A stretch of DNA of 64,000 nucleotides, from positions 4,180 through 68,179 of IMG/VR virus record IMGVR_UViG_3300037478_000343. One strand, written 5' to 3'. Shown here one piece after another: positions 6,996 to 38,260 of this stretch; the stretch's first letter is position 1; each line of letters begins with the position of its first letter. The translations under genes were made by a program, and so were the position numbers. The stretch is from a virus. The notes under the pieces are model-generated. The model was given only the letters and a program-made list of their open reading frames with translations. It was not told where the DNA came from and did no database searches.

Positions 6996-9509
6996 ATGCA
7001 ACTGTTCGACTACCAGAGCCGTGTTCTCGACGACGTGCGCTACGCCATCCGCGGAGGCGCACGCTCGATCTTAATGGTGCTCCCGACCGGTTCAGGAAAA
7101 ACGGTCTGCGGTGCCCACATGATTCATTCCGCTGAGTCGAAAGGCAACCCGACGCTATTCACCGCGCATCGGCGCGAGCTGGTGAACCAGACCGTCGACA
7201 AGTTGCAACGTTTCGGCGTACAGCATGGGACGATCATGGCCGGCAAGACGCCGTCCCTTTGGCATGGCGTGCAGGTTGCCAGCGTCGATACTTTGCGGGC
7301 TCGCTGCATGAGCCCACGCAAGAAGATGGAATTGCCACGCGCATCTATCCTGATGGTGGACGAAGCGCACCGGTCCTGCAGCCCGACCTACACGAAGCTG
7401 ATCGACCATTACCGTAAGGACTCGCTGGTGATTGGGCTCACGGCTACGCCGATTCGCGGCGACGGCAAGGGCCTTGGCCGCCACTACGACGAGATGGTTG
7501 TCGGACCCACGGTGCAAGAACTGATCGACATGGGGCGCCTGGTACAGCCCAAGTATTTCGTGCCGAGCATTCAGGACCTGACTGGCGTGCCTATCGCGAA
7601 GGGCGACTACGTCGAGAAGCACCTCGGCAACATCATGGGCACGAAAGAGGTGATCGGCGACGTCGTGGAGCATTACGGCAAGCTTGGCGAGGGCCCGGCC
7701 TTGCTGTTTGCGCCAGATGTGAAGTCGTCCATCGGCTACATGGAAGCATTCAATCGTGCTGGCATTTCTGCGGCTCATATTGATGCGTCCACGCCAGCGG
7801 ACGAGCGCGACCGCATCATCGCAGGACTCCTTGGCGGCCGGTTCGATGTTTGCTGCAACGTAATGGTGCTTTGCCTTGACACCGAAACCGAGATTCTCAC
7901 CGACCGAGGATGGACAAACTACCGGGAAATGACCAAGCAGCACAAGGTGGCTAATTGGGAAGGCGGTCGCGTGTGGTTTGAGGGGCCGCAAGATGTGGTC
8001 GTGAGGGACCGAGATCCAAGTGAGCGCATGTTCTCCATAGAGACGCGCAAGAAAAGCATCCGGGTTACCTCAGGGCATAGGATGCTGTACAGAACGAAGC
8101 ACGGAGGACGGTTCCTCAAATGCCCCGTGGACGAACTTGAAGGACGAAGCGTGCAGCTTCCGATTACCGGTCGCATTGATATAGAGCCCGCTGAAGTCAC
8201 ATTGGACGAATGTATGTTCGCGGGGTTCTTTGTTGGCGATGGCTCAAGGTGCCAACTACAGAGAGGAGGTGTCGAGTACGTTGTTTCTCAGAGCTTCGCT
8301 TATCCGAAGATAATTGCATGGTTCGATGCGCTGATTCTCAGGTGCGGTCTGCATTGCGTGCGAAAGGAGAGGGCATACGCAGTCAAATTCGTGCGCTGGA
8401 GCTTCTGCCGCGGAACCGGCGGAAAATCACAGAAACGCAACGGTGGCGTGGCTCGTCTAGAGTGGCTGCTGGACAAATCTTGCTCCTCCATCAGTAGTTT
8501 GAGCGCCTCTCAGTTCGAGGCGTTTATGCATGGTCTCTGGATGGCCGACGGCAACCACGGAGATGGCGCGACTCCAGTCAAGAACAAATATATAACCTCC
8601 TGCAACAAGTACATGCTAGACAACATTCAGGCCGCAGCCACTGTTCGCGGCATGCGGGTGTCGCTGTCTTCTGAGATTCTTCCACGTAAGGCAAACCACC
8701 GGTCGCAATGGACCCTATCGTTCTGCCATAGAGATTACTGCTCCACGAGCTGCTCTGAGTTTAAGGCAGAGAACATCTGGCGCCCAGAGAAGGTCTGGTG
8801 CGTCAAGACCACGTCAAAAAACATCATCACCAGGCGGCAAGGCAAGGTTGTTGTCATGGGCAACACCGAGGGCTTCGACTGTCCACCAGTGCGCACCATC
8901 ATCATGTGCCGACCAACCCGAAACATCGGTTTGTATTTGCAGATCGGCGGTCGGGGCCTGCGCACGTCGGACGGAAAGGACTCCTGCATAGTCATCGACC
9001 ACTCTGGGAGCGTGTACGAGCACGGCCTGCTGGAATGGGACCACGAGTGGAAACTGACCGATGCCGAGGGCTGCGAGTCTCGCGAGGAGCGCCAGAAAAA
9101 GCTGGACGAGAAGAAGCCTATAACCTGCGTCCAGTGCTCCCATGTGTATACCGGCCAGCTTATCTGTCCCAACTGCGGACACATGCCGAAGAAGCACGGA
9201 AAAATTGTCGAGAGTCGCCAGGCCGATCTGGTTGAGTTACGGACCCTGGCGCGCCAGAAAAAGGAGCGCAAAGACAAGCCCCGAGAGTACACGAAGGAGG
9301 AGAAGCAGCTGTTCTTTTCCATGGCGCTCCAGTACGCCGCTGACAGAGGACACAAAGATGGTTCAGTGGCTTGGAAATTCAAAGACCGCTTTGGCCACTT
9401 CCCTCAAGACATGCAGAGGATACCGACAGAGCCTTCACCGGAATTCATGCGGTTCATCCAGCACCTGAATATTAAAGCCGCCTACCGCCGGAAGAAGGAA
9501 GCGGCATGA
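6996..9509 (+). CDS. SF2 DEAH-box DNA helicase with C-terminal zinc ribbon, interrupted by an intein (extein about 506 aa)
   Basis: Walker A LPTGSGKT, motif II MVDEAH, motif III GLTATP, motif V split as VMVL|...|TEGFDCP, C-terminal CVQCS...CPNCGH zinc ribbon. A 331-aa insertion separates the two halves of motif V. Confidence 0.85.
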   Translation: MQLFDYQSRVLDDVRYAIRGGARSILMVLPTGSGKTVCGAHMIHSAESKGNPTLFTAHRRELVNQTVDKLQRFGVQHGTIMAGKTPSLWHGVQVASVDTLRARCMSPRKKMELPRASILMVDEAHRSCSPTYTKLIDHYRKDSLVIGLTATPIRGDGKGLGRHYDEMVVGPTVQELIDMGRLVQPKYFVPSIQDLTGVPIAKGDYVEKHLGNIMGTKEVIGDVVEHYGKLGEGPALLFAPDVKSSIGYMEAFNRAGISAAHIDASTPADERDRIIAGLLGGRFDVCCNVMVLCLDTETEILTDRGWTNYREMTKQHKVANWEGGRVWFEGPQDVVVRDRDPSERMFSIETRKKSIRVTSGHRMLYRTKHGGRFLKCPVDELEGRSVQLPITGRIDIEPAEVTLDECMFAGFFVGDGSRCQLQRGGVEYVVSQSFAYPKIIAWFDALILRCGLHCVRKERAYAVKFVRWSFCRGTGGKSQKRNGGVARLEWLLDKSCSSISSLSASQFEAFMHGLWMADGNHGDGATPVKNKYITSCNKYMLDNIQAAATVRGMRVSLSSEILPRKANHRSQWTLSFCHRDYCSTSCSEFKAENIWRPEKVWCVKTTSKNIITRRQGKVVVMGNTEGFDCPPVRTIIMCRPTRNIGLYLQIGGRGLRTSDGKDSCIVIDHSGSVYEHGLLEWDHEWKLTDAEGCESREERQKKLDEKKPITCVQCSHVYTGQLICPNCGHMPKKHGKIVESRQADLVELRTLARQKKERKDKPREYTKEEKQLFFSMALQYAADRGHKDGSVAWKFKDRFGHFPQDMQRIPTEPSPEFMRFIQHLNIKAAYRRKKEAA
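7872..8864 (+). mobile_element. intein with LAGLIDADG homing-endonuclease domain, inserted in helicase motif V
   Basis: Starts with Cys (CLDTETEILT, block A), TSGH block B, two LAGLIDADG-type motifs (MFAGFFVGDGS and FMHGLWMADGNHGDG), ends ...KVVVMGN followed by Thr+1 (TEGFDCP). Removing it restores a contiguous helicase motif V. Penultimate residue is Gly rather than His. Confidence 0.75.
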
Positions 9510-9913: not shown

Positions 9914-10851
9914 GCCGGCCCAGCCTCATTTCCGAAGTGCGAGAGACCGCGCGCGGCCGGTGGCCAAACGTCTTGCGTGCGATCGGTGTAGACCCAGCGG
10001 TGCTGAGCGGAAAGCACCAGCCATGCCCGATGTGTGGCGGCGAGGACCGGTTCAGGTTCACCGACCACCAGTCCGAGGGGCGGTATTTTTGCTCCGGGTG
10101 TGGTCCGGGTGACGGGTTCGATCTGGTTGTAGGGGTGTTGGGTGTGTCGATGCGGGATGCGGCGAAAGAGATCAGGAAAATATGCGGTGGTGTGCCGGAG
10201 GCGGACGAGGTTTTTACAGAGCCAGACGTGGACTCGAGAAAGAACGCGCTCAACAGCATGTGGCAGTCCGCTGGTCTGTGGGTGGCTGCGCGCAGGTATC
10301 TGACTACGCGGGGCTGCTTTCGAATGGACGCGGATTTATACCAGGATCTTCGCGGCGGGAATATCTGGCACAAGGAGAAGGGTAGGAGGATGCGTGCCAT
10401 GCTGGCGCTCGTGCGCGACCCCCATGGCCGGCCAGTATCGATCCATCGCACCTTCCTGGACGAGGATGGCAAGCGGTTCGAGCGGAAGATGATGCCGCCC
10501 GTTGGAGACATATCTGGATCGTCGATCAGGCTTGGCATCATCGCTGACAAGGTAATTATTGGCGAGGGTATCGAGACAGTTCTGTCCGGATGCCTCAAGT
10601 TCGAATGGCCCGGCATGGCCGCGATCAGCGCAAACCTGATGCAGATGGTGAAGTTACCCGCTTCCGTGAAGGACGTCATCATCTTGGCGGACAACGACAA
10701 ATCGTTCACCGGTCAGGCCGCGGCATTCACCTTGGCGCGCCGGCTGGACAACGAGAAGCGGCGCGTGTCGGTGTATCTCACGGAGCGGCGCGGAGACTTT
10801 AACGACGACCAGGATCACTACCAGATTTGGAATAACGAAACAGGGGACTAA
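9910..10851 (+). CDS. DNA primase (P4-type Zn-ribbon plus TOPRIM)
   Basis: CPMCGGEDRFRFTDHQSEGRYFCSGCG zinc-binding motif, then a Toprim-like region (IIGEGIETVLS...ILADNDKSFTGQ). ATG at 9910 overlaps the upstream stop (ATGA). Confidence 0.8.
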   Translation: MSRPSLISEVRETARGRWPNVLRAIGVDPAVLSGKHQPCPMCGGEDRFRFTDHQSEGRYFCSGCGPGDGFDLVVGVLGVSMRDAAKEIRKICGGVPEADEVFTEPDVDSRKNALNSMWQSAGLWVAARRYLTTRGCFRMDADLYQDLRGGNIWHKEKGRRMRAMLALVRDPHGRPVSIHRTFLDEDGKRFERKMMPPVGDISGSSIRLGIIADKVIIGEGIETVLSGCLKFEWPGMAAISANLMQMVKLPASVKDVIILADNDKSFTGQAAAFTLARRLDNEKRRVSVYLTERRGDFNDDQDHYQIWNNETGD

Positions 10852-10854
10852 CCA

Positions 10855-11121
10855 ATGCAGCCCGCCACGAACAATCGAAAACAACCACCGCAGCAAGGAA
10901 GCCGCGGCTGGCTTCAGACCTACCTAGACGTGCTTGCAGCAGTCTGCGGTCGAGGCATCAAGCACTACACCAAGACGTTCAGTACACCGCGCGAATGGAT
11001 CGAATTTCAGGTCGGCGGCAGATGCGTGCGGCCTGAACCACGACAGCCTATAGGTGGTCAGAGCTACGCGCAGATCGAACGAGGTCGCTCTATCCGAAAG
11101 AAAGCGCAACTTAGAAAATGA
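10855..11121 (+). CDS. hypothetical protein (88 aa)
   Basis: ORF track, same strand and operon. Confidence 0.4.
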   Translation: MQPATNNRKQPPQQGSRGWLQTYLDVLAAVCGRGIKHYTKTFSTPREWIEFQVGGRCVRPEPRQPIGGQSYAQIERGRSIRKKAQLRK

Positions 11122-11786
11122 ACACACTGGATATAGTTGCCTACAAGGGCGACGTAGAACTCGAGGAGTCCCGATGGTGTAACGCATGGGGCATGACCGT
11201 AAAGGTCAAGCTGGAGCAGCGGCCCCACGAACTGAATGCGGCGAACCCATTTAAGAAGTACAGCAGGATGCGCAAGAACAGGGTTGGCACGAGATTTCAG
11301 GCCGTGTTCGCTGCTGGCGAGGACGACATCTCGTACAACGACGAGGTGATGCTTAAAGGCTGGTCTGACGGCACCACGGGCTGGAAGCTGACGCTCTGGA
11401 TACATGCAAACGATGACGGCCTGCATCCGTTCATGGATAGCCAGAAGGGCACCACGTACGGGCTGGTGATGGTCGAACTCGATGACGATAATGTCGCGAT
11501 AAATCAAAAGAAGAGAGACCGCGTTGAGGCCGCCAAGGACGCGCGGAAGCATGGATACCGGTTGTCGAGCTACGCGGCGATGCTGTGCCGTGAACCGCAG
11601 TTCATGCAGTGGCTGAATACCGGCCCACACGACGAGATCTTCGAGAGCGAGGAGCAGGTCGCCACATGGATGCGCAACCTACTGAGCATCGAGAGCCGCG
11701 CGGATCTGGATCACAGCGAGGCGAAGGCTCAGATGTTTCACGAGGAGGTAAGGAAGCCGTACTCGAAATGGAGCGGGGAACGATGA
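11118..11786 (+). CDS. hypothetical protein (222 aa)
   Basis: ORF track. ATGA overlap with the upstream stop. Globular, protein-like composition. Confidence 0.55.
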   Translation: MNTLDIVAYKGDVELEESRWCNAWGMTVKVKLEQRPHELNAANPFKKYSRMRKNRVGTRFQAVFAAGEDDISYNDEVMLKGWSDGTTGWKLTLWIHANDDGLHPFMDSQKGTTYGLVMVELDDDNVAINQKKRDRVEAAKDARKHGYRLSSYAAMLCREPQFMQWLNTGPHDEIFESEEQVATWMRNLLSIESRADLDHSEAKAQMFHEEVRKPYSKWSGER

Positions 11787-11941
11787 TCAGAATTATCCTA
11801 ATGGCGCTGTTCTACCCGATCCTGGGGGTTTTAATTCTCGCGTTTCTGATCTTGCTGGGTATTGCGATCACCGGGCGCGTGATGTTTGCGTGTGCTGAGG
11901 AAGGGCTGGAGGAGCTATTGTGCGCTTTCCGACGACTGTAA
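11783..11941 (+). CDS. small hydrophobic membrane protein (52 aa)
   Basis: MIRIILMALFYPILGVLILAFLILLGIAITG... ATGA overlap with the stop of the preceding gene. Confidence 0.35.
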   Translation: MIRIILMALFYPILGVLILAFLILLGIAITGRVMFACAEEGLEELLCAFRRL

Positions 11942-12271
11942 AGGCTCACCACGATCGCGTGCGCGCGTGTAGATGTGTCGTGACCGCATCGCCACAAGTC
12001 ACCATTCACCATTGCCACGGCGGTTCGATGAAAGACGCTGGATTTCACTCTGGCGGTGCTCAGAGGGGAGTGGGGGAGGCGCTGGTGCTGCCTTTGAAAG
12101 CGGGGTTCCATTTCGGGGATAACGGTATCGACAACGGTGTCGGTGTCGAGACGTGGGAAATTTGGTACGGGACTCAGGTAGGGTTTTTGAAAGAGATTTC
12201 TGAGCTACTTGAGTATGATGTCTTCGAACTACACCGCCTTTGGGAAAAGGAGCCGCCGCCACGAGGATGAC

Positions 12272-12769
12272 ATGGAAGTCAAGATACGCCCATTAGTAGC
12301 AGGTCCGCGGCTCGAGATCGACGAGCAGAAGGAAGCGTGGAAGTGGCTGGCCAGCGTTCAGGTTGGTGACAAGTGCCTTCAAGACTACAGCTTTATGTGC
12401 CCTAACGGCACCCAGCTAGCCGGCGGCCGCAACCGCCGTGCGCAATACATGTCGAGCCTGAAGGCGCAGGGATTCAAGACCGGCGTCAGCGACCTTGTGA
12501 TTGCTTATCCGGTCGGAGAGTTCCATAGCGGAGATTACCCCGGTGGCGCGTTCCATGGCGCCTATATTGAGCTGAAGCGTGTGCGGGAGGCATTCAAGGG
12601 ACCCGCGGCCTTGGCGGCCAGCGTCAGTGAGGACCAAAAGGGCTGGCTTCGGCTGATGGCCTCGGTCGGCTACTGGGTGTACGTGGCGTACGGCGCGGAA
12701 GACTTTAAGGTTGCCGTCAGATCGTACCTGCAAAGAAAAAATCAGCCACCCCTTGATTTTTCTCTGTGA
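12272..12769 (+). CDS. VRR-NUC domain nuclease
   Basis: GVSDLVIAYPVGEFHSGDYPGGAFHGAYIELKRV...KGWL fits the VRR-NUC (PD-(D/E)xK) pattern. In-frame ATG at 12272 (MEVKIRPL) within track ORF 12209..12769. Confidence 0.65.
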   Translation: MEVKIRPLVAGPRLEIDEQKEAWKWLASVQVGDKCLQDYSFMCPNGTQLAGGRNRRAQYMSSLKAQGFKTGVSDLVIAYPVGEFHSGDYPGGAFHGAYIELKRVREAFKGPAALAASVSEDQKGWLRLMASVGYWVYVAYGAEDFKVAVRSYLQRKNQPPLDFSL

Positions 12770-12824
12770 CCCGCTAACCTCAGTGTGAACGTGAGGTATC
12801 AGCATTCGATGAGGATTTGCATGC

Positions 12825-13139
12825 ATGAGTAGATTAAGATCCGAGTGCCACGACTCAAAAAATCCGGCACTCCCAAACGACACGGCGCTTTTCTTGATAC
12901 GCGATTCGGTGGCGCGTCGTCGATCACTGATTCACGGTAGGTTGCATGACGGAAGCGGCAAGCATTGCGCCATTGGAGCGTTCTGGGATGACAACCCAGG
13001 TACAACCCTGAGTTCGTCGCTCATTGATGAGGTCGCTGCGGTGAATGATTCGCTCCCGTCTACGGCCACGCCGAAAGAGCGCTGGAAAAAAGTCAACGAA
13101 TGGTTGCGGTGGAAGATTAAAGCGCTGTCAGCCAAGTAA
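12825..13139 (+). CDS. hypothetical protein (104 aa)
   Basis: ORF track. GAGGA RBS upstream. Confidence 0.45.
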   Translation: MSRLRSECHDSKNPALPNDTALFLIRDSVARRRSLIHGRLHDGSGKHCAIGAFWDDNPGTTLSSSLIDEVAAVNDSLPSTATPKERWKKVNEWLRWKIKALSAK

Positions 13140-13259
13140 CAGAAACTTTCAAGCCGATGTAGGCAACGAAAAGTGCTCAGGCAGACTGACCTGAGGGGGC
13201 TGGGACACCGGGAACTTTTGGACCAGAGCTGGTGTATCCGCGAGTCCACATACGAGAAA

Positions 13260-14066: not shown

Positions 14067-14315
14067 ATGCTCGCACCACACAGCGTCTATGGCTACGTGT
14101 CCGAGAAAGACATCGAGGAGGCCATCGAAAAGAGGCTGAGGACCACCGGCGCCGACAAGAAGGACGTTCTGGCGTCGCTGCTTGGGGAGGCCATCAACAC
14201 TCTCTTGAAGATTAACTCAGCGATACCCATCAGCTCACGACACCGGCACCTGATCTCGGGTCCGATGGAAGAATTTGCGAATGGCAGCGGCAAAGAAACA
14301 TATCCGACATCCTAG
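14067..14315 (+). CDS. hypothetical protein (82 aa)
   Basis: ATG at 14067 with a GAGGAGG RBS. Track ORF 14064..14315. Confidence 0.45.
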   Translation: MLAPHSVYGYVSEKDIEEAIEKRLRTTGADKKDVLASLLGEAINTLLKINSAIPISSRHRHLISGPMEEFANGSGKETYPTS

Positions 14316-15135
14316 TAGGGGTCGCGAAACGATCTGCGGACGGATGTCGGTAACGTTCGCCGCGAAGGACGGTGATGCGACTTGCGGTGTGTGCCGGTCG
14401 ATGGCGACGAACGGAAACCTTGAGAAGCTACGGCTGAACGACTCCAAGGAGAAGTTTCCCGGCGCCAACCAGAGCGGCAATCCCCGCATGACGGACCTGC
14501 AGAAGGCATTTGCAGCTCATCCTCTGGTGACGACCAACCCACGTCGCGCGGCGATTGAGGTTGGTTACAGCGAGTCCTACGCAGAGGATCACGCGCACGC
14601 GCTCAGGAAGCAGTTGTCGTTCGCCATTATCGCGAACCAGGAGGAGGCCAGGAAGCTATCTGCAATTTCGGCTGCTCGAGTGCAGCAGGAGCTTGCATCG
14701 ATGGGATTTGCAAATATTTTGGATTACTACGATGTTTGCGCTGAGACCGGGGAAGCCACCCCGAAGCAACTGAACGAACTGACGCGCGAGCAAGCGGCGG
14801 CCGTTCAGGAGGTAGAGATGTTGGAAATCGAGGATGCTGATGGCACTAAGAGAAAGGTGCTGGGGCGCATCAAGCTCACGGACAAGCGTGCGGCATTGGT
14901 TGAACTGGGAAAAACCATTGGACTTTTCAACAAATTTACCATTGAGGACCGCCGGCAGAACACGCTAGACCTTGAGCAGGTACCTACCGAGGACCTTGAG
15001 AAGGTCGAACGGTACCTGTTGAACGCCGCCCGCAAGACGCGGGACAAGATCGACAATCATGAGGCCATACCTGGCGAATACGCCGAGGCCGGGACATTAC
15101 TAGAGGGGCCACAGGATGGCGGTCAAGAAAACTGA
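14281..15135 (+). CDS. terS: terminase small subunit (Terminase_2 / P27-like); start uncertain (14281-14488)
   Basis: MTDLQKAFAAHPLVTTNPRRAAIEVGYSESYA...KLTDKRAALVELGKTIGLF matches the Terminase_2 small-subunit pattern, including the conserved C-terminal KLxDKxxALELLGKxLGxF-like segment. Confidence 0.75.
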   Translation: MAAAKKHIRHPSRGRETICGRMSVTFAAKDGDATCGVCRSMATNGNLEKLRLNDSKEKFPGANQSGNPRMTDLQKAFAAHPLVTTNPRRAAIEVGYSESYAEDHAHALRKQLSFAIIANQEEARKLSAISAARVQQELASMGFANILDYYDVCAETGEATPKQLNELTREQAAAVQEVEMLEIEDADGTKRKVLGRIKLTDKRAALVELGKTIGLFNKFTIEDRRQNTLDLEQVPTEDLEKVERYLLNAARKTRDKIDNHEAIPGEYAEAGTLLEGPQDGGQEN

Positions 15136-20642: not shown

Positions 20643-20975
20643 TTAGAACTGCTGATAAACAAAGCTACCTTCTGACGTGATGCCCACAAGGCTGGTATGG
20701 TCCTGCAGGTATTCGGCGACGGCATCTTTGATTTCGTCATCATCTTCGCAGTCGGAAATGTCGATGCTGTAGCTATCGGCAACGTCTTTTGGTGAGTCTT
20801 CCGAGAACTCGCAACATACGGCGATAACATCGAGCATTGGCCCGCCCTCTTCGGGGCAGCCAGTCTCTTCCAGATAGTCATATATCAGGCCAAGCGCCTC
20901 ATAGCTGAACTGATCCTCGCGGCCCATATCACGGAAGGCGTCGCGGAAGTCGGAAACGGTTACATTGGTTTTCAT
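20643..20975 (-). CDS. highly acidic protein (110 aa), weak ArdA-like resemblance
   Basis: About 30 % Asp/Glu. Segments DYLEETG and SDCEDDDEIKDAVAEYL recall the ArdA antirestriction motifs YYIEETG and DCDDMYDVARYY; weak, from memory. GAGGTGA RBS. Start overlaps the upstream stop. Confidence 0.5.
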   Translation of the reverse strand: MKTNVTVSDFRDAFRDMGREDQFSYEALGLIYDYLEETGCPEEGGPMLDVIAVCCEFSEDSPKDVADSYSIDISDCEDDDEIKDAVAEYLQDHTSLVGITSEGSFVYQQF

Positions 20976-21127
20976 TTCGTCACCTCAAAATGAGCAAAAT
21001 ATGCCCGGTAAGATTCTGGCGCGTCATCAATGCTTGCGAATTCTGCTACAAGGATGTCGCTCGGTTCGATCATTTCCGGCTCGCCCTGCTTGGCGGCCCT
21101 CTGGTGTAAGTATTCGTAATAGTCCAT
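20972..21127 (-). CDS. small acidic protein (about 51 aa; MDYYEYLHQRAAKQGEPEMIEPSDILVAEFASIDDAPESYRAYFAHFEVTK)
   Basis: Met-31 of track ORF 20972..21217 with a GTGAGG RBS. First gene of the leftward operon. Confidence 0.35.
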   Translation of the reverse strand: MDYYEYLHQRAAKQGEPEMIEPSDILVAEFASIDDAPESYRAYFAHFEVTK

Positions 21128-21331
21128 TGGTCGGTACCTCACTCTTGCGGTTGGTGTTGCGCCATAGCGGTATCGCTTGGCATATGTTGAGTATAGGCAC
21201 GTTGTGCCCAATGTCAAGCACTTTCTGCAAAAACCTTCAATTCACGCCGAAAACCGCGCCAACCAAGGGACAGCAGGGCGCCGATATGTTAGGATTTTGC
21301 GCTTACCTGATGGGATTTTCGAGGGCTCGGG

Positions 21332-21676
21332 ATGGGCGTAACGCAAGCAGTAAAGACCGCCCTTAGCACAGACATGCAGGCACTGCATGACGAGCTGCTA
21401 TCGGGCGCGCCGGACTTCCTCGACCTACCCGACAGACGCCGCAAGGAGCTTGAAAAGAACGTCATGCGGCGCGAGCGGGTGTTCTGGCTGCAGACGCGCA
21501 GGGTGATGAAGAATTTTGTATCCGAGGCCCTGGTGCGCCGGGCCATCTACGCCGAGGAGCGAGCCCACGATGCTGAAATGAGGCTCGGCGAGCTGGCCCT
21601 GATCTGCAACGGCATGAAGGACGAAGTAGACAGGCTGCAGGGTGAATTGACGAAACTTGCGAAGGGGATCAAGTGA
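21332..21676 (+). CDS. hypothetical coiled-coil protein (114 aa)
   Basis: ORF track. GAGGG RBS. Divergent from the leftward operon. Confidence 0.5.
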   Translation: MGVTQAVKTALSTDMQALHDELLSGAPDFLDLPDRRRKELEKNVMRRERVFWLQTRRVMKNFVSEALVRRAIYAEERAHDAEMRLGELALICNGMKDEVDRLQGELTKLAKGIK

Positions 21677-22245
21677 ACTTCCAGGACGGCACATTGAGCC
21701 GCCCCAGCCGTCGACGCTGGTTCGATTGGTACGGCCGCGAAGGTCGCCGCGTTCCCGTGTTCGGGCGCAAACTAATCGGCGATGGCGGATGCTCGTATCA
21801 TGTTGGCGGGCTGCGCGTACGCATCCGAGGTCGCAGCAATTTAGCCAACCCAAGCGGGCGGGTAATTGTGTCATTGGGGCGGTGGCAGTGGTTGCTGCTC
21901 CCTACGAAACGCTGATTTTGATGGTGCGGCCCGAAATGGATGCGACGTGCGCCGGCAGGCGGAAAGCATGCCCTCGGGCCTCTGCAACCCATAGCATCGG
22001 GGACTCACGGACCCCGGCCACCATCGAATGCAATTGAATGGCGCCTGACCCTCCTGGCGGCCCCAACCAAGCCTAGCGCAGCGACAGCCCGACCCCCACC
22101 ATAGAGGGATAACCCCCATACCCAACCCCTCCCGTATTATCCTCGCGTCTATCAGCGCTTCTCACTGCCCCGTGACTAACACCAGACCGAACACTAACAC
22201 CAGCCCCGTTAGTATCCATCCCGCTGTTACTGTCAGGGACAATAC

Positions 22246-22286
22246 GCAACCCAGCGGTTGCATATAAAGCGCAACCCCTAGGTTGC
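22246..22286. repeat. two adjacent 16-bp palindromes GCAACC-N4-GGTTGC (centres about 25 bp apart)
   Basis: Read directly: gcaacc-cagc-ggttgc and gcaacc-ccta-ggttgc, inside a 1.4-kb gene-free region. Confidence 0.6.
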
Positions 22287-22625
22287 ATGTCTATGCGCAA
22301 CTAAACAGAGCCCAACGCGCCATATTATCGGCCTATGCGCAATGATCCCGAGCGGGAGGAATCAGGCCTTATGCACCGTAGGGAGCTGATATGCTACCGA
22401 GCGGGAACGAAACCTCGGACAATAACGAAACCAGCTGAGGAAACGTAACACAGCCAGCCATACGCGCAACGAAACCTCGCGTATGACTGTGTTTTGATGC
22501 GCCACGCCAGGCCCAGCCACACACCCACACACCGGGACAAATACCTGTTTCTGACGCTTGTCCTCTCCGCCGGCTCCGCATGGCCGCACCCTCGAGCGCC
22601 TGCAGCTCAATGTCTATGCGGGTTA
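22287..22625. repeat. iteron-like short direct repeats (atgtctatgcg x2; tatgcgcaa x3; aacgaaacctcg x2)
   Basis: Read directly. Copies at about 22287/22609, 22292/22334/22460 and 22407/22468. Flanked downstream by AT-rich tracts at about 22800-22830 and 23020-23080. Confidence 0.45.
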
Positions 22626-23076
22626 CGCAACACCCCGACCCCATGGATGGCCGATCCCGTGGCCGGTAGTTGGTAGGTCAAGTGGGAAACGCGGGTCAGG
22701 GGGCAGGGCTGGGCGCTACCAGCTATCAACGGGTTGGCGCTGATACCTCGACATATGGCGAGTGGGCAATAGCATGCAGCGCTGTAGGCCGCATGGTTGT
22801 GCGGTTTATTACATAATAGTTATTATACGCACATGAGGGGAAACGTAGCGTATGTGGGGAATTGGGGCGATTGCTCATCCTGGCCGGCCCTGTCCGTAAG
22901 GGGCCCACGGCAGAGATGGGACCCGTCACCGCCACACAGGAAAGGCCATGCCGCTGAGAGATTCGGGTCCCATTGTCATGGTACCAAGTCTCTCTCGCAT
23001 ACGATTACGGAACTTTTGGAAAAGTGCCCTAAATTTTTTTGAAAAATATTAGGAAATTCAGTTACTAATTTGATGC

Positions 23077-23604
23077 TTACGCAAGGTCAATATAGGCTAG
23101 TGCGCGCTCCAAGCCCTCTCTAGAGTCTCCTAGGGCGGCGATGCCCAAGTTACACTTGTGGCAAAGCCACCCTCGGAATTGACCCGTTTCGTGACAGTGG
23201 TCTAGGCAAAGGTTTCTTTTTTTCGGTGGTCGGCCGCAGAGTTCGCAAAACCCAGGGTCCGCCCTTGTAGGCTTTGGAAGTCCCTGCCAACGTCGTGCCT
23301 GCTCTAACAGCGTTGTTCTGTTCTCGGTGGCGTACTTTCTCTTATGCGCTTTGTTAATTTTGTTCCAGCCGCGCCTTCTTGAAAGGATTCTTTCGTGGTT
23401 CGCATAGTAGTACACCTTTTCGCAGGCTCTGCACTTCGCTTGCAGGCCATCTTGCTTGGCGTTGTTCTTATTGAACTCTGACAGCGGCTTATCGCGCCTG
23501 CATGTCCGGCATTTCTTAGATTGATCGTTCACTAAAGTCCTTTTTGGTGAGGTGAAGCCACTCCTCTGAAGTTCACTGCCGATTATACCGAAAACCAGAT
23601 GCAT
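23077..23604 (-). CDS. endonuclease VII (T4 gp49-like) family nuclease
   Basis: CRTCRRDK...CRACEK...FCELCGRPPKKRNLCLDHCHETGQFRGWLCHKCNLGIAAL matches the Endo VII zinc-binding/HNH-like core. Visibly lower GC than its surroundings. Confidence 0.8.
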   Translation of the reverse strand: MHLVFGIIGSELQRSGFTSPKRTLVNDQSKKCRTCRRDKPLSEFNKNNAKQDGLQAKCRACEKVYYYANHERILSRRRGWNKINKAHKRKYATENRTTLLEQARRWQGLPKPTRADPGFCELCGRPPKKRNLCLDHCHETGQFRGWLCHKCNLGIAALGDSREGLERALAYIDLA

Positions 23605-23615
23605 GATTATACGCT

Positions 23616-23831
23616 TTGGCCTATATTTGTTTTGTGAAAAAAAATAGCCATCTCATTGCGCTCCTGTTGCTGTCCTTGGTAGTGTCGGGTTGTGCCTCAA
23701 AACTGAGCGCACCGCACCCACACGAGTTGGAGTACGAGAAATGCAAGATGCGCGGCGGCATTCTCATCACGACCGGGACCGCCGGCAGGCTCAGGACGGA
23801 GCCATGGACGGTACAGTGCGTTCGACGTTGA
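23616..23831 (+). CDS. possible small lipoprotein (start uncertain: TTG 23616 or GTG 23634)
   Basis: ...KKNSHLIALLLLSLVVSGCAS: signal peptide with lipobox VSGC. Overlaps an alternative-frame ORF. Confidence 0.3.
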   Translation: MAYICFVKKNSHLIALLLLSLVVSGCASKLSAPHPHELEYEKCKMRGGILITTGTAGRLRTEPWTVQCVRR

Positions 23832-24193
23832 AAGTCAGCGACGTTGAGCGCTGGGACTCCATGGTTGAGGACGAGGCGATTGATTTTTGCCGCTCGCTGT
23901 TCGTGGAGCGAGATGGACTTGCTAAGGCCCTGGCCGGCCGTCAGGGGACCAACATCAAAGCTTTCGGACACGTCAGGCCCTACGCGAACGAGGCTTCGCC
24001 AGCGCTGGCCCTGTCAGATTTCAAAGTGTCGTTCCTGACGTACGCTCGCTCACTGAACGCGACAGCAAAGAGCCACTATCTGTACTGGCGCAAGAAGCCG
24101 ACCATAGAGTTTATGAAGGACCGATTCATGCTGTCGGCGGTTGGGGTTCTGCTGACGAAAAAGAAACCACTGGTGAGTGGTAACATTGGTTAA
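23804..24193 (+). CDS. hypothetical protein (about 129 aa)
   Basis: Met-39 of track ORF 23690..24193. The downstream part is protein-like. Confidence 0.35.
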   Translation: MDGTVRSTLKVSDVERWDSMVEDEAIDFCRSLFVERDGLAKALAGRQGTNIKAFGHVRPYANEASPALALSDFKVSFLTYARSLNATAKSHYLYWRKKPTIEFMKDRFMLSAVGVLLTKKKPLVSGNIG

Positions 24194-32547: not shown

Positions 32548-34194
32548 TTGAGTGCCGCTGCCCCCGTCCAAAACCTAACCCAGATTCAGGCCGAGCTTGC
32601 ACGGCGTGATCAGTATCGTTTTTTCAAGGACGCGTGGACAATCATGGACCCCGCGCCGTTCCACGATACGTGGCATCTTGAGGTTATCTCCGAGTTCCTG
32701 ACCTACGTGACGCTGGGAGACATCACTCGCCTAGTCGTCAGCATGCCGCCTCGCATGACAAAAAGTTTAATGTGTTCAGTCAGTTGGTGCGTATGGTCCT
32801 GGGTGCAGAACCCCAAACTGCAGTTCCTCACCGCCTCCTACGACCTCGATCTGTCCAAGCGAGATACCCTGAAGTCTCGCCGCCTTATTGAATCTGCATG
32901 GTTCCAAGAGCGATGGGGTAGAGAATTCAAGCTATCCGCCGACGAGAACATGAAGGGCCGCTACTCGAACACCAAGGGTGGTCACCGGATCGCCATCACG
33001 TCTGGCGGTAAGACTACCGGGGAGGGGGGCGATGTCATCCTGATCGACGACGCGCACAACGCGAGAGAAGTTTACTCCGATGTAAAGCGTGAGGGCGTGC
33101 TGGAGTGGTACGACAACGCTATGCGATCCCGCCTGAACAACCAGAATACCGGCGCCATCGTGCATGTCGGCCAGAGAACACACGAGGGCGACGTGATCGG
33201 GCATGTGCTCAGGAAGGAGGGCAAGGTCCAGCTCAACGACGACGGTAAGTGGGTGCATCTGGTTCTGCCGAACGAGTACCGCCCGAGTAAGCGCTGCGTG
33301 GTGTACCTACCGAAGGATGTGAAGCGCTCCAAAGAGGACCCTGACTTTGAGCCAGTTCCGATCTTCGAAGATCCGCGCCAAAAAGAGGGCGAGCTTCTGT
33401 GCCCAGGCAGGCTGGGTAAGGAGGCGACAAACGCGCTGAAGCCGCCTCACGGCATGAGTGAGCGAGACTACAACTCTCAGTACCAGCAGGACCCCGCGGC
33501 CGACCAGGGTCTCATCCTCAAAAAGCACTGGTGGCAGCCGTGGGTATATCCGGAATGGCATCCGCACCACCACCGGCGACGAGAGATGCCGAAGTGCGAG
33601 ATGTTGATCCAGATTTACGACACCGCGTTCGAGACCGAGGAGGAGAACGACTACTCGGCTCGGACCACATGGGGCGTGTTCACGTATTCGCCGGAGTCCA
33701 TGCATCACCAGACTCGCGCCATACTCAAGGGAAAGCCAAAGAGATGCGCCATTCTGGTCGAGGCATGGCGGGACAAGATCGCGTTTCCGCAGCTCAGGCG
33801 GGAGGCGATCCGCGCCTACAACAAGATGGACCCAGATATGGTTCTGATCGAGAAGAAGGCGTCGGGGCACTCCCTGATTCAAGAATTGAGGCAGTCCGGG
33901 GTGAGGGTCAAGGCCGTCGACCCCAAGGGCAAGGACAAGGTGCTGCGCGCCCACGTGAGTTCGGCGCCACTGGAACAGGGATGCATATTCTACGTGCCCG
34001 GCCACAACGAGGCGAACGACGTAATTGAGGAAGCGTCGAAATTTCCGATGGGCATCAACGACGACTATGTCGACACCGTGGTCATGATGCTGGCGTACCT
34101 GAGGCGGATGGGCTCGATTGAGTACTTCGACGAGGAGGACGACAACGAGCTTAATTTGTTCAAGCCCCGCAGGGAAAGGGGCATCTATGGCTAG
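32548..34194 (+). CDS. terL: terminase large subunit (start uncertain)
   Basis: N-terminal ATPase region (FKDAWTIMDPAPFHDTWHLEVISEFL...LVVSMPPRMTKS Walker-A-like ...VILIDDAHN Walker B) and a C-terminal RNaseH-like nuclease region, typical of Terminase_6-type TerL. 548 aa. Confidence 0.85.
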   Translation: MSAAAPVQNLTQIQAELARRDQYRFFKDAWTIMDPAPFHDTWHLEVISEFLTYVTLGDITRLVVSMPPRMTKSLMCSVSWCVWSWVQNPKLQFLTASYDLDLSKRDTLKSRRLIESAWFQERWGREFKLSADENMKGRYSNTKGGHRIAITSGGKTTGEGGDVILIDDAHNAREVYSDVKREGVLEWYDNAMRSRLNNQNTGAIVHVGQRTHEGDVIGHVLRKEGKVQLNDDGKWVHLVLPNEYRPSKRCVVYLPKDVKRSKEDPDFEPVPIFEDPRQKEGELLCPGRLGKEATNALKPPHGMSERDYNSQYQQDPAADQGLILKKHWWQPWVYPEWHPHHHRRREMPKCEMLIQIYDTAFETEEENDYSARTTWGVFTYSPESMHHQTRAILKGKPKRCAILVEAWRDKIAFPQLRREAIRAYNKMDPDMVLIEKKASGHSLIQELRQSGVRVKAVDPKGKDKVLRAHVSSAPLEQGCIFYVPGHNEANDVIEEASKFPMGINDDYVDTVVMMLAYLRRMGSIEYFDEEDDNELNLFKPRRERGIYG

Positions 34195-34253
34195 CGTGCC
34201 AATACGGTCCTCATCCAAGGATTTGCAAATACCTTCGGTGTTATATTGTCGAG

Positions 34254-34535
34254 GTGAAGGACAAGCCCAAATACAAGCCTACCCGAACCGACCGAGCGAT
34301 GGCCGAAGGGGTGGACGATCTCCTGACGGCCCTTATGCACGGCGATCTGGTGGGTCTTGGGGTGTGCGCAACCACCAAAGAGGGCAGGCCGGTGTATTTC
34401 TATCTAGATAAGCTGGAGAGCCACGACTCTCTCTCTGGTCCTATGTCGAAGCTAATGGGACTGTACACGATGAACCGTAATTTCAACAAGCAAATCACGG
34501 CCCCCAAGCAAAACCGAAGCTTTATGGTTCACTGA
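34254..34535 (+). CDS. hypothetical protein (93 aa)
   Basis: ORF track, between terL and the portal gene. Confidence 0.35.
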   Translation: MKDKPKYKPTRTDRAMAEGVDDLLTALMHGDLVGLGVCATTKEGRPVYFYLDKLESHDSLSGPMSKLMGLYTMNRNFNKQITAPKQNRSFMVH

Positions 34536-36916
34536 TGGCGGGCAAGTACAACTACGAAGACGAAGACGTGATGCTCGACGGGGATGACCCGTTCGCGGAC
34601 GTGAAGCGCACCGATGACGGCACCGCAGTCTATTCTGACGGGGACGACATTGTCGTAGACCTGACTGGCCGGGGTCCGTATGACGATGACGGGGAAGAAT
34701 CTGATCACGACGAAAACCTTGCGGAAAAGCTGGATGCTGACGAGCGACGCAAGGTAGGAGAGGATTTGGTTCTGGCCGTCAAGGCCGACGACGAGTCCCG
34801 CGAGAAATGGAAGCGCCGGCTGCGTGAAGGTCTGGAGCTGATCGGAGTAGAGGACATCCCGACCGACTCCTCGGCGTTCGACGGATCAAGCACCGTCAAC
34901 CATCCCGCCATCGCCGAGGCCATGGTTCGGTTTCAGGCCAACGCTATCGAGGAGGTATTTCCCGCGGAGGGTCCGGTCAAGTGCGTCGTGATCGGCGAAT
35001 CGAATCCTGAACTTCAGGACCAGGCGGTTCGCGTTCAGGACTTTATGAACTACCAGCTGACCGAGGCCGACGACGAGTATTTCGAGCAATCCGACCAGCT
35101 GACCATGTACCTTCCGTACGCCGGCAGCGCATTCCGAAAGGTCTACTACGACCACACGGAGGAGGTTTCCGTGTCCCGCTTCGTGGATGCGCAACACTTC
35201 ATCGTGCCGTACGATGCAACATCCCTGAAGACCTCCAAGCGCTACACCCACTGGTACACCCTGAGTGACGTAGAGGTCGATGCCCGCAAGCGCTCCGGTG
35301 AGTTTCTGAAAGACGCGAAGCTGGACCCGGACGGGAAGCTTGGCGGACGCGGGGAAGACAGCCTGTCGGACGTTTCTGACGACCGCGAGGAATCACGGGC
35401 CGAGGACGATGTTACCTACGACTTCTACGAAGTACACGTTGAGATGTGCTTCGAGCAGTTCGACCAGGAGGAAGGCGAGGATATCGCCTACCCATACGTG
35501 GTCACGGTCGAACTCGAGTCCGGCGAGATCATGGCAATCCGCCGGCTATGGAAAGATGGCGATCGGCGCCGCCGCAAGCGTGTCCACTTCATCCACTACA
35601 AGTTCCTGCCGGGACTTGGTTTCTACGGATGGGGATACCTGCACATCATCGGTTCCCTCGGGAAGGCCGCGTCTGGCGCGCTGCGTGCGCTTCTGGACGG
35701 CTCCGCGACCGCTTCCCTGCAGGGTGGCTTCAAGTCCAAGGAATCGAAGGTAGCCGGGGAGTTCGTCTTCAAGCCGGGGGTATGGCAGGACGTGGACATG
35801 ACCGCGGAGGACCTTGCGAAGTCGTTCTATACGCCGCCGTTCAAGGAGCCGTCTCCGGCCCTGTTTCACACCCTGGATTTGCTGGTCAACGGCATCAAGA
35901 CATTCGCCTCTACTACCGAGGCCATGACCGGCGCCGCCGACAACAAAGGACCCGTGGGGACCACTCTGGCCCTGATCGAGCAGGGGTCCAAGATCTACTC
36001 CGGCATCCACAAGCGCATGCACAATTCGGCCCGGCGCGAGTTCAAGCTCCTGGCGGCCCTCAACTACGAGTGCATGGAAGAGGAAGCATACCCCTACGAC
36101 GTGTCTGGCGGGGACCGGTCTGTGTTCAAGTCCGACTTCGACGGCAGGGTCGACATCCTTCCCGTGTCGGACCCGAACATATATTCCAGCGTGCAGCGCA
36201 TCGCTCAGGCTCAGGCCGTCCTTGAGTTGATAACTCAAGACGCGTCCATGTACGACGAGGAGGCCAAGCGTATTGCCCACCTAGAAATGTACAAGGCCCT
36301 GCGCATTCCCAAGCCGGAACGGTTCCTGCCGAAGAAGCGCACCAAGCGCATGGACCCGGTTACGGAGAACCAGATCATCCTAACCGGAGGTGGCACCGAG
36401 TCATATCCGGAGCAGGACCACGAGGCCCACATCCACGTCCACCAGATGTTCTTGATGGAGGTTCAGGGTATGGGGCTGGACCCCAAGGCGGTTGAGGCCG
36501 TCACGTTCAGCATGCAGGCTCACTTGGTTTCGCACCACGCTCACGCGTATAGGCTGCGCATCGAGCAGCAGATCGGGGTACCTCTGCCAGACACCGACTT
36601 CACCGCGATCCGGGACGAGGAAGATGTGCCGGTCGAGATCGACAACGCCGTAGCGCGCGCCGTGGCGGCCAATGTCGCTCCACCGCCGCCCCCTCAGGGT
36701 CCCGAGCCAGATCCGCTCGAGATGAAGCAGCAGGAGCACGAACAGCGCCTGGCTCACAAGGACGAGGAGCACAAGCAGAAGCTGTCTCACAAGCAGTCTG
36801 AGCATGATCTGGATATTTCGTCCGATGAGGAATCGCACGATCAGGCCCTTCGTAAGAAGGCAGCAGACAACATCATAGACTCAGCCGCACGGGTCGACAA
36901 GATGTCGAGTGAGTAA
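34535..36916 (+). CDS. portal (head-to-tail connector) protein
   Basis: 793 aa immediately after terL. Acidic N-terminus, long central conserved-looking region, charged C-terminal tail. ATGG overlap with the upstream stop. Assignment by size and position. Confidence 0.75.
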   Translation: MAGKYNYEDEDVMLDGDDPFADVKRTDDGTAVYSDGDDIVVDLTGRGPYDDDGEESDHDENLAEKLDADERRKVGEDLVLAVKADDESREKWKRRLREGLELIGVEDIPTDSSAFDGSSTVNHPAIAEAMVRFQANAIEEVFPAEGPVKCVVIGESNPELQDQAVRVQDFMNYQLTEADDEYFEQSDQLTMYLPYAGSAFRKVYYDHTEEVSVSRFVDAQHFIVPYDATSLKTSKRYTHWYTLSDVEVDARKRSGEFLKDAKLDPDGKLGGRGEDSLSDVSDDREESRAEDDVTYDFYEVHVEMCFEQFDQEEGEDIAYPYVVTVELESGEIMAIRRLWKDGDRRRRKRVHFIHYKFLPGLGFYGWGYLHIIGSLGKAASGALRALLDGSATASLQGGFKSKESKVAGEFVFKPGVWQDVDMTAEDLAKSFYTPPFKEPSPALFHTLDLLVNGIKTFASTTEAMTGAADNKGPVGTTLALIEQGSKIYSGIHKRMHNSARREFKLLAALNYECMEEEAYPYDVSGGDRSVFKSDFDGRVDILPVSDPNIYSSVQRIAQAQAVLELITQDASMYDEEAKRIAHLEMYKALRIPKPERFLPKKRTKRMDPVTENQIILTGGGTESYPEQDHEAHIHVHQMFLMEVQGMGLDPKAVEAVTFSMQAHLVSHHAHAYRLRIEQQIGVPLPDTDFTAIRDEEDVPVEIDNAVARAVAANVAPPPPPQGPEPDPLEMKQQEHEQRLAHKDEEHKQKLSHKQSEHDLDISSDEESHDQALRKKAADNIIDSAARVDKMSSE

Positions 36917-37140
36917 TGGCGTCAGCGCTCCCAAAGGAAACGCGTAAAGCTCGCGCCTTCCTGAGAAGCAAGGGCATCTCGACTCAGGAGATTCCCCCGC
37001 GGAAGCTAGCGAACGCCGCCAAGGAACTGAATAAGGGCTTCAGGGAAGTTTTGCGGCTCCTGATGCGGCTCCGCTCTGGCGGCCAGAATCAGGCCCAGGA
37101 AAGACGGGAAAACATACGGAAAGCGGCTGCGGCCGAGTAA
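36916..37140 (+). CDS. hypothetical small basic protein (74 aa)
   Basis: ATG overlaps the portal stop. Confidence 0.4.
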   Translation: MASALPKETRKARAFLRSKGISTQEIPPRKLANAAKELNKGFREVLRLLMRLRSGGQNQAQERRENIRKAAAAE

Positions 37141-37167
37141 ATCGGGTGTTAACGGAGGTACAAACGG

Positions 37168-37410
37168 ATGGATCGGGAAATTCAGGTTTTTAGCGGCGTG
37201 TCGTGGTTGCACGACCGTCTTGTGAAAGACATCAACGAGCGCATAAGGTGGCTTGAGGAAAACCTCGGTAAGGGCGTGCCCCTACACGAGTACGGAAATT
37301 TCGTGGGTCGCATCAAGGAACTGAGGCGCACGCGGGACGATCTTGTGCCAGAGGCGTTCAAGGACCTTTCCGGGTCCGATGATGACGACGATAACGAGGA
37401 GGAGGCGTAA
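37168..37410 (+). CDS. hypothetical protein (80 aa) with acidic C-terminus
   Basis: GGAGGT RBS. Confidence 0.5.
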   Translation: MDREIQVFSGVSWLHDRLVKDINERIRWLEENLGKGVPLHEYGNFVGRIKELRRTRDDLVPEAFKDLSGSDDDDDNEEEA

Positions 37411-37772
37411 TGTCGGAGGCAATACCTGTAGCGATTGGCTGGAAAGTGATCGTGCGTCCTCTTGACGGAAAGACCACCTCCAAGGGCGGAATAGACGTGA
37501 GCGCCACCGTGGACGCTCAGGAGCACCTGAACTACATCGGCGAGGTGGTGGCCATAGGGGAGGCCGCGTTCAAGTCTAGAACGCAGGGCGGGCTGGATAT
37601 GAGCACATGGCAGGCCGTTCCCCAGGTCGGGGACTACGTGCTTTACCCGCCGTACGCTGGCATGAAGATATCGCGAGCCGGTGAGCGGAAGCCTCTGCGA
37701 CTTATGAACGACACCGACCTCGTCGCGATCATAGGCGATCCGGACGATTTTTACTCTTGGGTGGACGTTTAG
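37410..37772 (+). CDS. GroES-like co-chaperonin (Cpn10)
   Basis: IGWKVIVRPLDGKTTSKGGI...IGEVVAIGEAAFK...VGDYVLYPPYAGMKI...DLVAII aligns with GroES, including the mobile-loop region and the final hairpin. Confidence 0.8.
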   Translation: MSEAIPVAIGWKVIVRPLDGKTTSKGGIDVSATVDAQEHLNYIGEVVAIGEAAFKSRTQGGLDMSTWQAVPQVGDYVLYPPYAGMKISRAGERKPLRLMNDTDLVAIIGDPDDFYSWVDV

Positions 37773-37775
37773 AGC

Positions 37776-38147
37776 GTGATCAAGCGCTGCCCAAAATGTG
37801 CTCAAGGCAAGCCTTACGGCGAGTTTGATAAGAATAGTGCCAAATCCGATGGGCTACAGACTCAGTGTCGTGACTGTCGCAGAGGGAATTCACGATGGAG
37901 CAGGATTAAGTCTGAATACGGCATTCATCGTGCTACGTTCCTCGAGATGGAGCGCTCGCAAAACGGGAAGTGCGCTATATGCCTTCAGCCTCCAACAGAT
38001 CGCTATGGCGTGCTTGTGGTCGATCACTGTCACGATACGGGTAAGGTTAGAGGGCTCCTATGCAGGGATTGCAATTGCGGTATAGGCAGACTGAAAGACG
38101 ACCCTGAGATTCTGCAGAAAGCGCTAACTTATCTTTCGGACGCCTAA
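37776..38147 (+). CDS. endonuclease VII-family nuclease (second copy)
   Basis: CPKCAQGK...CRDCRRG...CAICLQPPTDRYGVLVVDHCHDTGKVRGLLCRDCNCGIGRL has the same Endo VII core as the 23077..23604 gene. Lower GC than its neighbours. Inserted between the GroES-like and scaffold genes. Confidence 0.75.
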   Translation: MIKRCPKCAQGKPYGEFDKNSAKSDGLQTQCRDCRRGNSRWSRIKSEYGIHRATFLEMERSQNGKCAICLQPPTDRYGVLVVDHCHDTGKVRGLLCRDCNCGIGRLKDDPEILQKALTYLSDA

Positions 38148-38260
38148 ACAGTTCATTGCCAGAACCGCATCCGGAAGGTGGACACGAAACCTAAACGTGG
38201 TAGACAATAAGCACTGCTCGTATCTGGGCAAGCACGGCTCCTAAAGAAGCCGGAGGAAAA

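Follow-up and report, generated by a model that had tools for sequence, protein, structure and literature searches.

Two genes of the F-CphI-like (DHHRN) endonuclease class in a phage genome, one of them a presence/absence polymorphism of the head module

A stretch of 64,000 nucleotides from the virus record IMGVR_UViG_3300037478_000343 (positions 4,180 to 68,179 of that record, hereafter the window) carries two genes of the endonuclease VII (Endo VII) family. Their products would be small endonucleases that cut DNA at specific sites, in the F-CphI-like (DHHRN) branch of the Endo VII/beta-beta-alpha-metal superfamily; the genes themselves, as we judge fairly probable, behave as free-standing homing endonuclease genes. 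The phage measures roughly 66-75 kb: its source contig is Logan SRR12683089_255907 (66,459 bp), and a JGI contig of 74,680 bp encodes identical proteins. Copy 1 lies on the minus strand, within a maximal open reading frame (ORF) at 23077-23604 that begins at ATG 23604 and encodes 175 amino acids (aa); copy 2 (37776-38147, plus strand, 123 aa) sits in the head/packaging module, where the portal gene and three other genes separate it from TerL, 3.6 kb upstream. By their sequences, both can be placed in the F-CphI/DHHRN class of free-standing homing endonucleases, a class already known, and copy 2 is a single-gene presence/absence polymorphism of about 380 bp. An earlier note, made by reading the window, had described both ORFs, which exist with the lengths given here, as paralogous Endo VII-family nucleases of low GC content, each a single-gene insertion, and had seen in them mobile homing-type nucleases, not a housekeeping Holliday-junction resolvase. 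This last proposal is well founded for copy 2, in view of its architecture, the indel of about 380 bp, its composition and a step in sequence identity at its insertion site; for copy 1 it comes down to a family-level argument and low codon adaptation.

Membership of the Endo VII family, as claimed in the earlier note, is borne out by matches above the gathering score to PF02945 (Endonuclease_7; E 3e-15 for copy 1 and 1.3e-24 for copy 2) and by matches of both proteins to PHROG 'endonuclease VII' families. The two proteins are 39% identical to each other (E 9e-28). Both contain the catalytic motif of the DHHRN family (CX2-4C, DH(D)H, R, CX2C, N), which is represented in copy 2 by C66xxC69, D83-H84-C-H86, R92 and C96xxC99-N100, and in copy 1, in the numbering of the 175-aa ORF, by C120xxC123, D135-H136-C-H138, R144 and C148xxC151-N152. 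The motif is preceded by an N-terminal zinc ribbon (C5/C8/C31/C34 in copy 2; C32/C35/C58/C61 in copy 1), and the DHHRN residues and both zinc sites are invariant across an alignment of 70 sequences. It is proposed that the four-cysteine ribbon serves in DNA binding and that the C-terminal CxxC...DHxH...R...CxxCN segment forms a zinc-stabilised His-Me-finger active site.

The reference protein, F-CphI of cyanophage S-PM2, was taken from NC_006820 and compared by BLASTP. It aligns with residues 1-120 of the 123 of copy 2 (31% identity, E 1e-21) and with residues 24-172 of the 175 of copy 1 (29% identity, E 6e-16). The three proteins are of the same size class (123-151 aa here, 142 aa in F-CphI), and in all of them an N-terminal CxxC...CxxC zinc ribbon is followed, in the same order, by the C-terminal CxxC-DHxH-R-CxxCN motif. 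Like F-CphI (PMC6083498), both genes are free-standing, outside any intron or intein, and lie beside conserved genes. However, F-CphI adjoins psbA and targets an intron-insertion site in intron-less psbA alleles, whereas here there is no intron, and copy 2 lies among head-assembly genes and copy 1 beside a non-coding stretch; moreover, identity to F-CphI is only about 30%, and copies 1 and 2 are known from sequence.

The DHHRN homing endonuclease family was defined on F-CphI by Fang et al. 2018 (PMC6083498), who divided proteins with the Endo VII motif into a resolvase clade, in which the motif is N-terminal and the protein aligns with T4 gp49 throughout, and an endonuclease clade, in which the motif is C-terminal and the protein aligns with F-CphI, and which also includes Hpy99I and intron-encoded enzymes. 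According to the same study, the T7-like podoviruses of the endonuclease clade also encode endonuclease I as a resolvase. By these criteria of motif position and alignment, both copies are assigned to the endonuclease clade, and neither shows the N-terminal motif, the helical dimerisation domain or the whole-length alignment with gp49 of a T4-type resolvase. T4 endonuclease VII (gp49, PDB 1en7 and 2qnc) shares with them PF02945, the catalytic residues and the zinc site (equivalents of D40, H41, H43, R54 and N62), but the T4 motif lies at the N-terminus, ahead of a helical dimerisation domain of about 95 residues that is absent here, while copies 1 and 2 have the extra N-terminal zinc ribbon, and copy 2 is dispensable in relatives. 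Both copies end 23 residues after the catalytic asparagine (N152 in copy 1, N100 in copy 2), compared with 95 residues in T4 Endo VII, and therefore lack the C-terminal dimerisation and junction-binding domain of the T4 enzyme.

Searches of structures led in the same direction. The top PDB sequence match of both proteins was Hpy99I (E 2e-10 for copy 2, 1e-5 for copy 1), a beta-beta-alpha-Me type II restriction endonuclease of Helicobacter pylori (PDB 3fc3/3gox). T4 Endo VII matched copy 2 solely through T4 residues 17-70 (E 6e-5), and was not among the PDB sequence matches of copy 1 at E <= 1. With an AlphaFold (AF2) model of copy 2 (mean pLDDT 95.2) as query, the leading Foldseek match was again Hpy99I (E 6.5e-7 over 132 columns), followed by T4 Endo VII (E 1.6e-3 over 85 columns). 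The match of Hpy99I to copy 2 covers the zinc ribbon, the catalytic core and the C-terminal helix, a likeness that implies, by analogy, that duplex DNA would be cut in a sequence-specific manner. Hpy99I has, in addition, some 80 residues that form an N-terminal domain, as well as a paired methyltransferase; copies 1 and 2 are phage-borne and have no methylase neighbour.

Homologues of copy 2 were found in 1076 phage records, at 1159 places and often several per genome. Some are single genes wedged among the structural genes of T7-like phages, and one cyanopodovirus has three of them, together with an HNH gene, around its terminase genes. Homologues of the DHHRN/F-CphI family are routinely labelled 'endonuclease VII' or 'recombination endonuclease', names that imply a resolvase. 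F-CphI itself was reportedly first studied by Zeng, Bonocora and Shub in 2009 and is, to our knowledge, the only homing endonuclease of this family to have been characterised biochemically.

As the earlier note stated, copy 2 is located between a GroES-like gene (PF00166) and a gene for a 341-aa acidic protein in the position of a scaffold gene, whose putative identity is drawn from this position and from its composition only. The GTG start of copy 2 is found 4 nt past the GroES-like stop codon, and its translation is probably coupled to that of the GroES-like gene. The automatic gene caller used on the source contig left this intact, high-scoring ORF uncalled, giving a 488-bp 'intergenic' gap; because the gene was never called, its protein is missing from a collection of 5.8 billion proteins, in which neither an exact look-up nor a homologue search recovered it.

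The closest relative recovered was IMGVR_UViG_3300037755_000910 (JGI Ga0395776_0001492, 33.7 kb; loci L082, L091 and L092 in our coordinates), found with the exonuclease and scaffold proteins as IMG/VR queries and not among the matches listed with the portal query. Its amino acid identity to the window reaches 94.5% in the portal, 96% in the scaffold-position protein and 98.5% in the product of the next gene. Two blocks of the head module align (32791-37772 of the window with 4912-9890 of L092, and 38186-41443 with 9925-13189), and the segment between them, which carries copy 2, corresponds in the relative to 34 bp (L092 9891-9924). The insertion starts directly after the GroES-like stop codon, and on its 3' side a region of about 113 bp upstream of the scaffold gene is intact, including the conserved GACAATAAG... 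and GCACGGCTCCTAAAGAAGCCGGAGGAAAAATG; this region is still recognisable in a relative with 77% portal identity. A side observation concerns the ends of the two genes: the 3' end of the GroES-like gene, GGACGTTTAG (37761-37772), resembles both the 3' end of copy 2, GGACGCCTAA (38138-38147), and the end of the GroES-like gene in the relative, TGACGCTTAG. The resemblance (7 of 10 bases) could reflect a short duplication at insertion, or chance.

In five further relatives, with portal identities of 65-77% (L084, L085, L086, L104 and L105), the gap between the GroES-like and scaffold genes measures 114-126 bp. Among 80 IMG/VR relatives in the matches listed, with portal identities of 33-45%, there was no Endo VII match within about 10 kb of the portal gene; a GroES-like gene was detectable in 54 of the 80, where its spacing to the next gene is too small for an extra gene of 370 bp. 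Since the site is empty in six relatives and none of the 80 distant ones carries such a gene, a gain of copy 2 in the lineage of the window is the parsimonious reading. The comparison of insertion sites called for in the earlier note thus had different outcomes for the two genes: copy 2 differs in presence and absence at a defined site, being missing from six relatives, while the single close relative has an orthologue at the same site as copy 1. A single-gene insertion is thus established for copy 2 alone. Two wider searches added little, namely a blastn comparison of the head module (34500-42000) with a cultured-phage collection, which gave no more than a 650-bp match in the capsid gene at about 66% identity, and a scan of JGI metagenomes with TerL, which gave 79 pattern matches and 0 confirmed.

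The insertion of copy 2 coincides with a change in DNA identity between the window and its closest relative. Identity is 87.7% over 32791-37772, and about 85% in the last 600 bp of this block; downstream, it reaches about 96-99% right at the insertion and is 95.8% over the whole tract that starts exactly there. In the same way, dS is 0.81 in the GroES-like gene and 0.53 in the portal gene but drops to 0.10 in both genes that immediately follow the insertion. Within the alignment of 13 kb, this is the second largest step in identity, and the largest adjoins the site of an HNH insertion in the relative. Barth et al. (PMC10055350) have described nuclease genes where stretches of genetic exchange end, a pattern that the step fits in a suggestive manner only; by its sequence, 38186-40800 looks like a recent exchange tract bounded by a nuclease gene.

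Copy 2 is accompanied by other selfish elements. A GIY-YIG gene with NUMOD constitutes a clean insertion of about 690 bp, 5 kb downstream of copy 2, and is absent in the same six relatives. This gene opens with nine or so codons (MAASGVHTV) that duplicate, in diverged form, the beginning of the adaptor-like gene downstream, which reads MTASGTYTF in the relative; in the window, the adaptor-like gene has a new start (MSSSNAHNF) within the 3' end of the insertion. The closest relative has, for its part, an intein-like insert of about 336 residues in TerL (884 aa, against 548 aa in the window; L092 3880-4875), which ends ...VSN|S and shows a faint LAGLIDADG match, as well as a 302-aa HNH ORF between the capsid gene and the one that follows (L092 13312-14220) that matches a PHROG HNH family (E 4e-23) and gave no match in a Pfam search. 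The window lacks these two elements and the relative lacks copy 2 and the GIY-YIG gene, so that the two head modules, about 90% identical, hold between them four different selfish elements, each at its own site.

In composition, the claim of lower GC and of atypical codon usage holds for both copies, with a modest drop. The GC content of each is 0.511, compared with a mean of 0.570 for the window, which places copy 1 in the lowest 3.0% and copy 2 in the lowest 4.9% of windows of equal length. On a codon adaptation index trained on long genes, copy 2 ranks 1st from the bottom (z -2.2) and copy 1 ranks 4th (z -2.0) among the roughly 50 genes of the window. The GIY-YIG gene at 42973-43683 shows the same effect. 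As for the word 'paralogous', the two copies are indeed homologous, but database relatives of copy 2 reach 43-50% identity, and those of copy 1, besides its orthologue, 46% over about two thirds of its length. Each copy having closer database relatives than the other copy, at 39%, an origin by duplication within this genome was rejected, and the two look like separate, independent acquisitions. An IMG/VR scan with copy 1 gave homologues of at most 34% identity over most of the length, on unrelated contigs, a result uninformative on the site.

The product of copy 1 is probably shorter than its maximal ORF. The likely start is GTG 23532, which would give 151 aa, because the extension up to ATG 23604 has as its counterpart in the closest relative a leader that carries an in-frame stop and is non-coding. 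AAGGA is found 5 nt before GTG 23532, and residue 24 of the 175-aa numbering is the first to align with F-CphI. The leader and the region upstream hold two TATAAT hexamers, noticed by eye; a sigma-70 promoter scan of this upstream region found no consensus promoter and no consensus -35. The neighbours of copy 1 are a gene for a 150-aa protein without family match and non-coding DNA, and both the TerS-like and the TerL genes are 8-9 kb away.

In the closest relative, an orthologue of copy 1 (P0122) is found at the same position. The proteins are 68% identical, with dN 0.27, dS 1.23 and dN/dS 0.22, compared with 88-98% identity, dN 0.01-0.07 and dS 0.1-0.8 for core genes; a dN/dS of 0.22 indicates that the protein is still under purifying selection. 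In this relative, a YAcAr (SLOG-family) gene (L082 9631-10023) stands between the shared leader and the orthologue, and a DUF4326 gene (L082 11274-11519) lies within the stretch that is gene-free in the window. On account of these two genes, the locus of copy 1 is best described, from sequence comparison, as a variable accessory region between the early and late modules.

The earlier note had placed copy 1 against an iteron region. It does adjoin a gene-free stretch of 1.4 kb, but no iterons turned up: scans of 20800-24000 for direct, inverted and tandem repeats gave weak, short matches of 2-3 copies and one 17-nt microrepeat. Just downstream of copy 1, the window and the closest relative share a 520-bp block (22544-23064) with 78.5% identity. 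Its substitutions show no codon periodicity (34/32/40) and it contains 35 gap columns, so that a hidden protein gene was rejected and the block would be conserved non-coding DNA. The gene-free stretch contains no Rfam family at the gathering score, and the predicted folding of RNA from the conserved block is not unusual (minimum free energy z-scores of -0.85 and +0.10 for the two strands).

Table 1. Features of the window discussed in the text (start and end in window positions).
Feature	Position	Strand	Remarks
SSB	2915-3355	-	recombination/replication module
Exonuclease	3384-4202	-	recombination/replication module
RecT	4868-5986	-	recombination/replication module
Helicase	6996-9509	+	recombination/replication module
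VRR-NUC domain protein	12209-12769	+	marginal Pfam match, 24.4 bits vs cut-off 23.8
Terminase_2 (small terminase-like, TerS-like) gene	14275-15135	+	early region, beside 394-aa 'DNA repair exonuclease'-type gene
Gene-free 1.4-kb stretch downstream of copy 1	21677-23076	.	no called genes
Copy 1, Endo VII-motif nuclease, DHHRN/F-CphI-like	23077-23532	-	probable 151-aa product, start GTG 23532
Leader and upstream region of copy 1	23533-23740	-	~80% identity to closest relative
TerL	32548-34194		
GroES/Cpn10-like gene, left flank of copy 2 insertion	37410-37772	+	PF00166, E 1.5e-8
Segment carrying copy 2, present in window	37773-38185	+	replaced by 34 bp in closest relative (L092 9891-9924)
Copy 2, Endo VII-motif nuclease, DHHRN/F-CphI-like	37776-38147	+	123 aa, GTG start
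High-identity tract	38186-40800	+	95.8% to closest relative; starts exactly at copy 2 insertion
341-aa acidic protein in scaffold position, right flank of copy 2 insertion	38261-39286	+	
GIY-YIG + NUMOD free-standing homing endonuclease gene	42973-43683	+	GC 0.512

With these data, a mechanism may be proposed. In a co-infected cell, the enzyme would cut the genome of a related phage without the gene, either in the cognate empty site or close to it. The cut would then be repaired by recombination with the nuclease-bearing genome, with functions that the RecT, exonuclease and SSB of this phage could supply, and the gene would be copied, together with part of its flanks, into the genome that had been cut. 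Copy 2 would then represent a recent, lineage-specific insertion at the GroES-like stop codon, upstream of the intact control region of the scaffold gene. Copy 1, whose mobility is plausible from its family membership and composition, would be an older resident of the variable accessory locus, still functional and perhaps partly domesticated.

Several points weigh against this interpretation. The GC deficit is modest, only about 2 standard deviations, and genes other than nucleases (the lysis cassette at 61610-62397 and the ORF at 91-687) share low GC and low codon adaptation. The nearest database relative of copy 2 is 43-50% identical, and no donor or second site of the same element has been seen, while the identity step at its insertion is a single observation from one genome pair. 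That the only close relative has copy 1 in the corresponding place, under purifying selection, would suit a useful phage gene as much as an active selfish one. Finally, the VRR-NUC protein, which also has a weak match to a PHROG 'Holliday junction resolvase' family and could be a housekeeping junction-resolving nuclease, is itself a marginal assignment.

It might be considered that one or both genes are housekeeping Holliday-junction resolvases or debranching enzymes like T4 gp49, which would clear branched intermediates before packaging. Both proteins match Endonuclease_7 and share the catalytic residues of T4, a replication system with RecT, exonuclease and SSB would make branched DNA, and copy 1 keeps its position in the closest relative with the low dN/dS given above. 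Nevertheless, this explanation appears improbable, since the alignment with T4 Endo VII is limited to the catalytic core of about 50 residues and to copy 2, 23 residues instead of 95 follow the catalytic asparagine and the domain for dimerisation and junction binding is missing, and the C-terminal motif and full-length alignment with F-CphI point to the endonuclease clade; in addition, copy 2 is dispensable, since a phage whose head proteins are 94-98% identical does without it, a candidate resolvase exists in the VRR-NUC protein, and codon adaptation is very poor in both copies (1st and 4th lowest of about 50). It is very improbable, moreover, that the genes are terminase accessory factors of the HNH type (HK97 gp74-like), or a restriction-enzyme-like nuclease working with a methyltransferase (Hpy99I-like), even if copy 2 lies in the head/packaging module at 3.6 kb from TerL and the closest solved structure is that of Hpy99I: neither gene adjoins TerL or the TerS-like gene, copy 2 is absent where the terminase (outside the intein-like insert) and the portal are about 95% identical, and no methyltransferase is found beside either gene.

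For copy 1, a further explanation has to be weighed, namely that it is a domesticated former homing endonuclease that serves the phage, either by cutting competing phages, satellites or host DNA, or by acting on the adjacent non-coding DNA in the initiation of replication or packaging. Its conserved position under purifying selection, its own conserved leader, the neighbouring 520-bp conserved non-coding block and its location in a variable locus where the relative has conflict-associated genes (YAcAr/SLOG and DUF4326) would agree with such a role. We regard it as unlikely, with some weight left to it, because the conservation is known from a single close relative, the divergence of copy 1 is well above that of its flanks (dN 0.27 and dS 1.23, against dS of 0.1-0.8) and its codon adaptation low, as is more typical of a selfish or often exchanged gene, and no repeats, Rfam family or unusual folding mark the adjacent DNA as an origin or a structured RNA. 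A more far-reaching version, to which we would give a slim chance, is that copy 1 is a DHHRN nuclease retained by the lineage and not, or no longer, selfish, which would act on the adjacent block at 22544-23064, nicking or cutting it at a specific site to initiate replication or packaging, or would exclude competing phages; or, in a related form, that copy 2 and the other nucleases of the head module drive the exchange of the scaffold-to-capsid block between lineages, as a miniature island of homing endonuclease genes (HEGs). If the former were true, copy 1 would be the first F-CphI-type enzyme co-opted for a phage function.

Returning to homing as the preferred interpretation, the situation of these genes is reminiscent of that of seg (GIY-YIG) and mob (HNH) homing endonucleases, which are free-standing genes in T4-like phages, and of the exchange tracts bounded by HEGs, or 'HEG islands' (Edgell et al. 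review, PMC2988022; Barth et al., PMC10055350). In both cases, single genes are inserted between conserved, often essential genes, are present or absent among close relatives, with different relatives carrying different elements, and are associated with a discontinuity in identity at the nuclease gene. However, copies 1 and 2 belong to another catalytic family, and the high-identity tract observed here, unlike a 'HEG island', measures only about 2.6 kb in one genome pair.

Selfish nuclease genes in a phage head module are otherwise an expected and unsurprising feature of phage genomes. The locus of copy 2 offers a natural pair of filled and empty sites at about 90% nucleotide identity, with a junction defined to the base and a sharp boundary of divergence, and this pair constitutes material for finding the target site and for testing homing and the co-conversion of flanking markers in the DHHRN family. 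It also shows that automated gene calling can miss an intact nuclease gene.

Other observations on the window concern genes away from the two nucleases. A tRNA scan of the whole window found none. The TerS-like gene is separated from TerL by 17 kb, an unusual distance between terminase genes. At 61610-62397, on the plus strand, a 121-aa ORF without family match is followed by a phage lysozyme gene, and at 91-687, on the same strand, there is a 198-aa ORF that likewise has no family match; low GC and low codon adaptation are found in both places.

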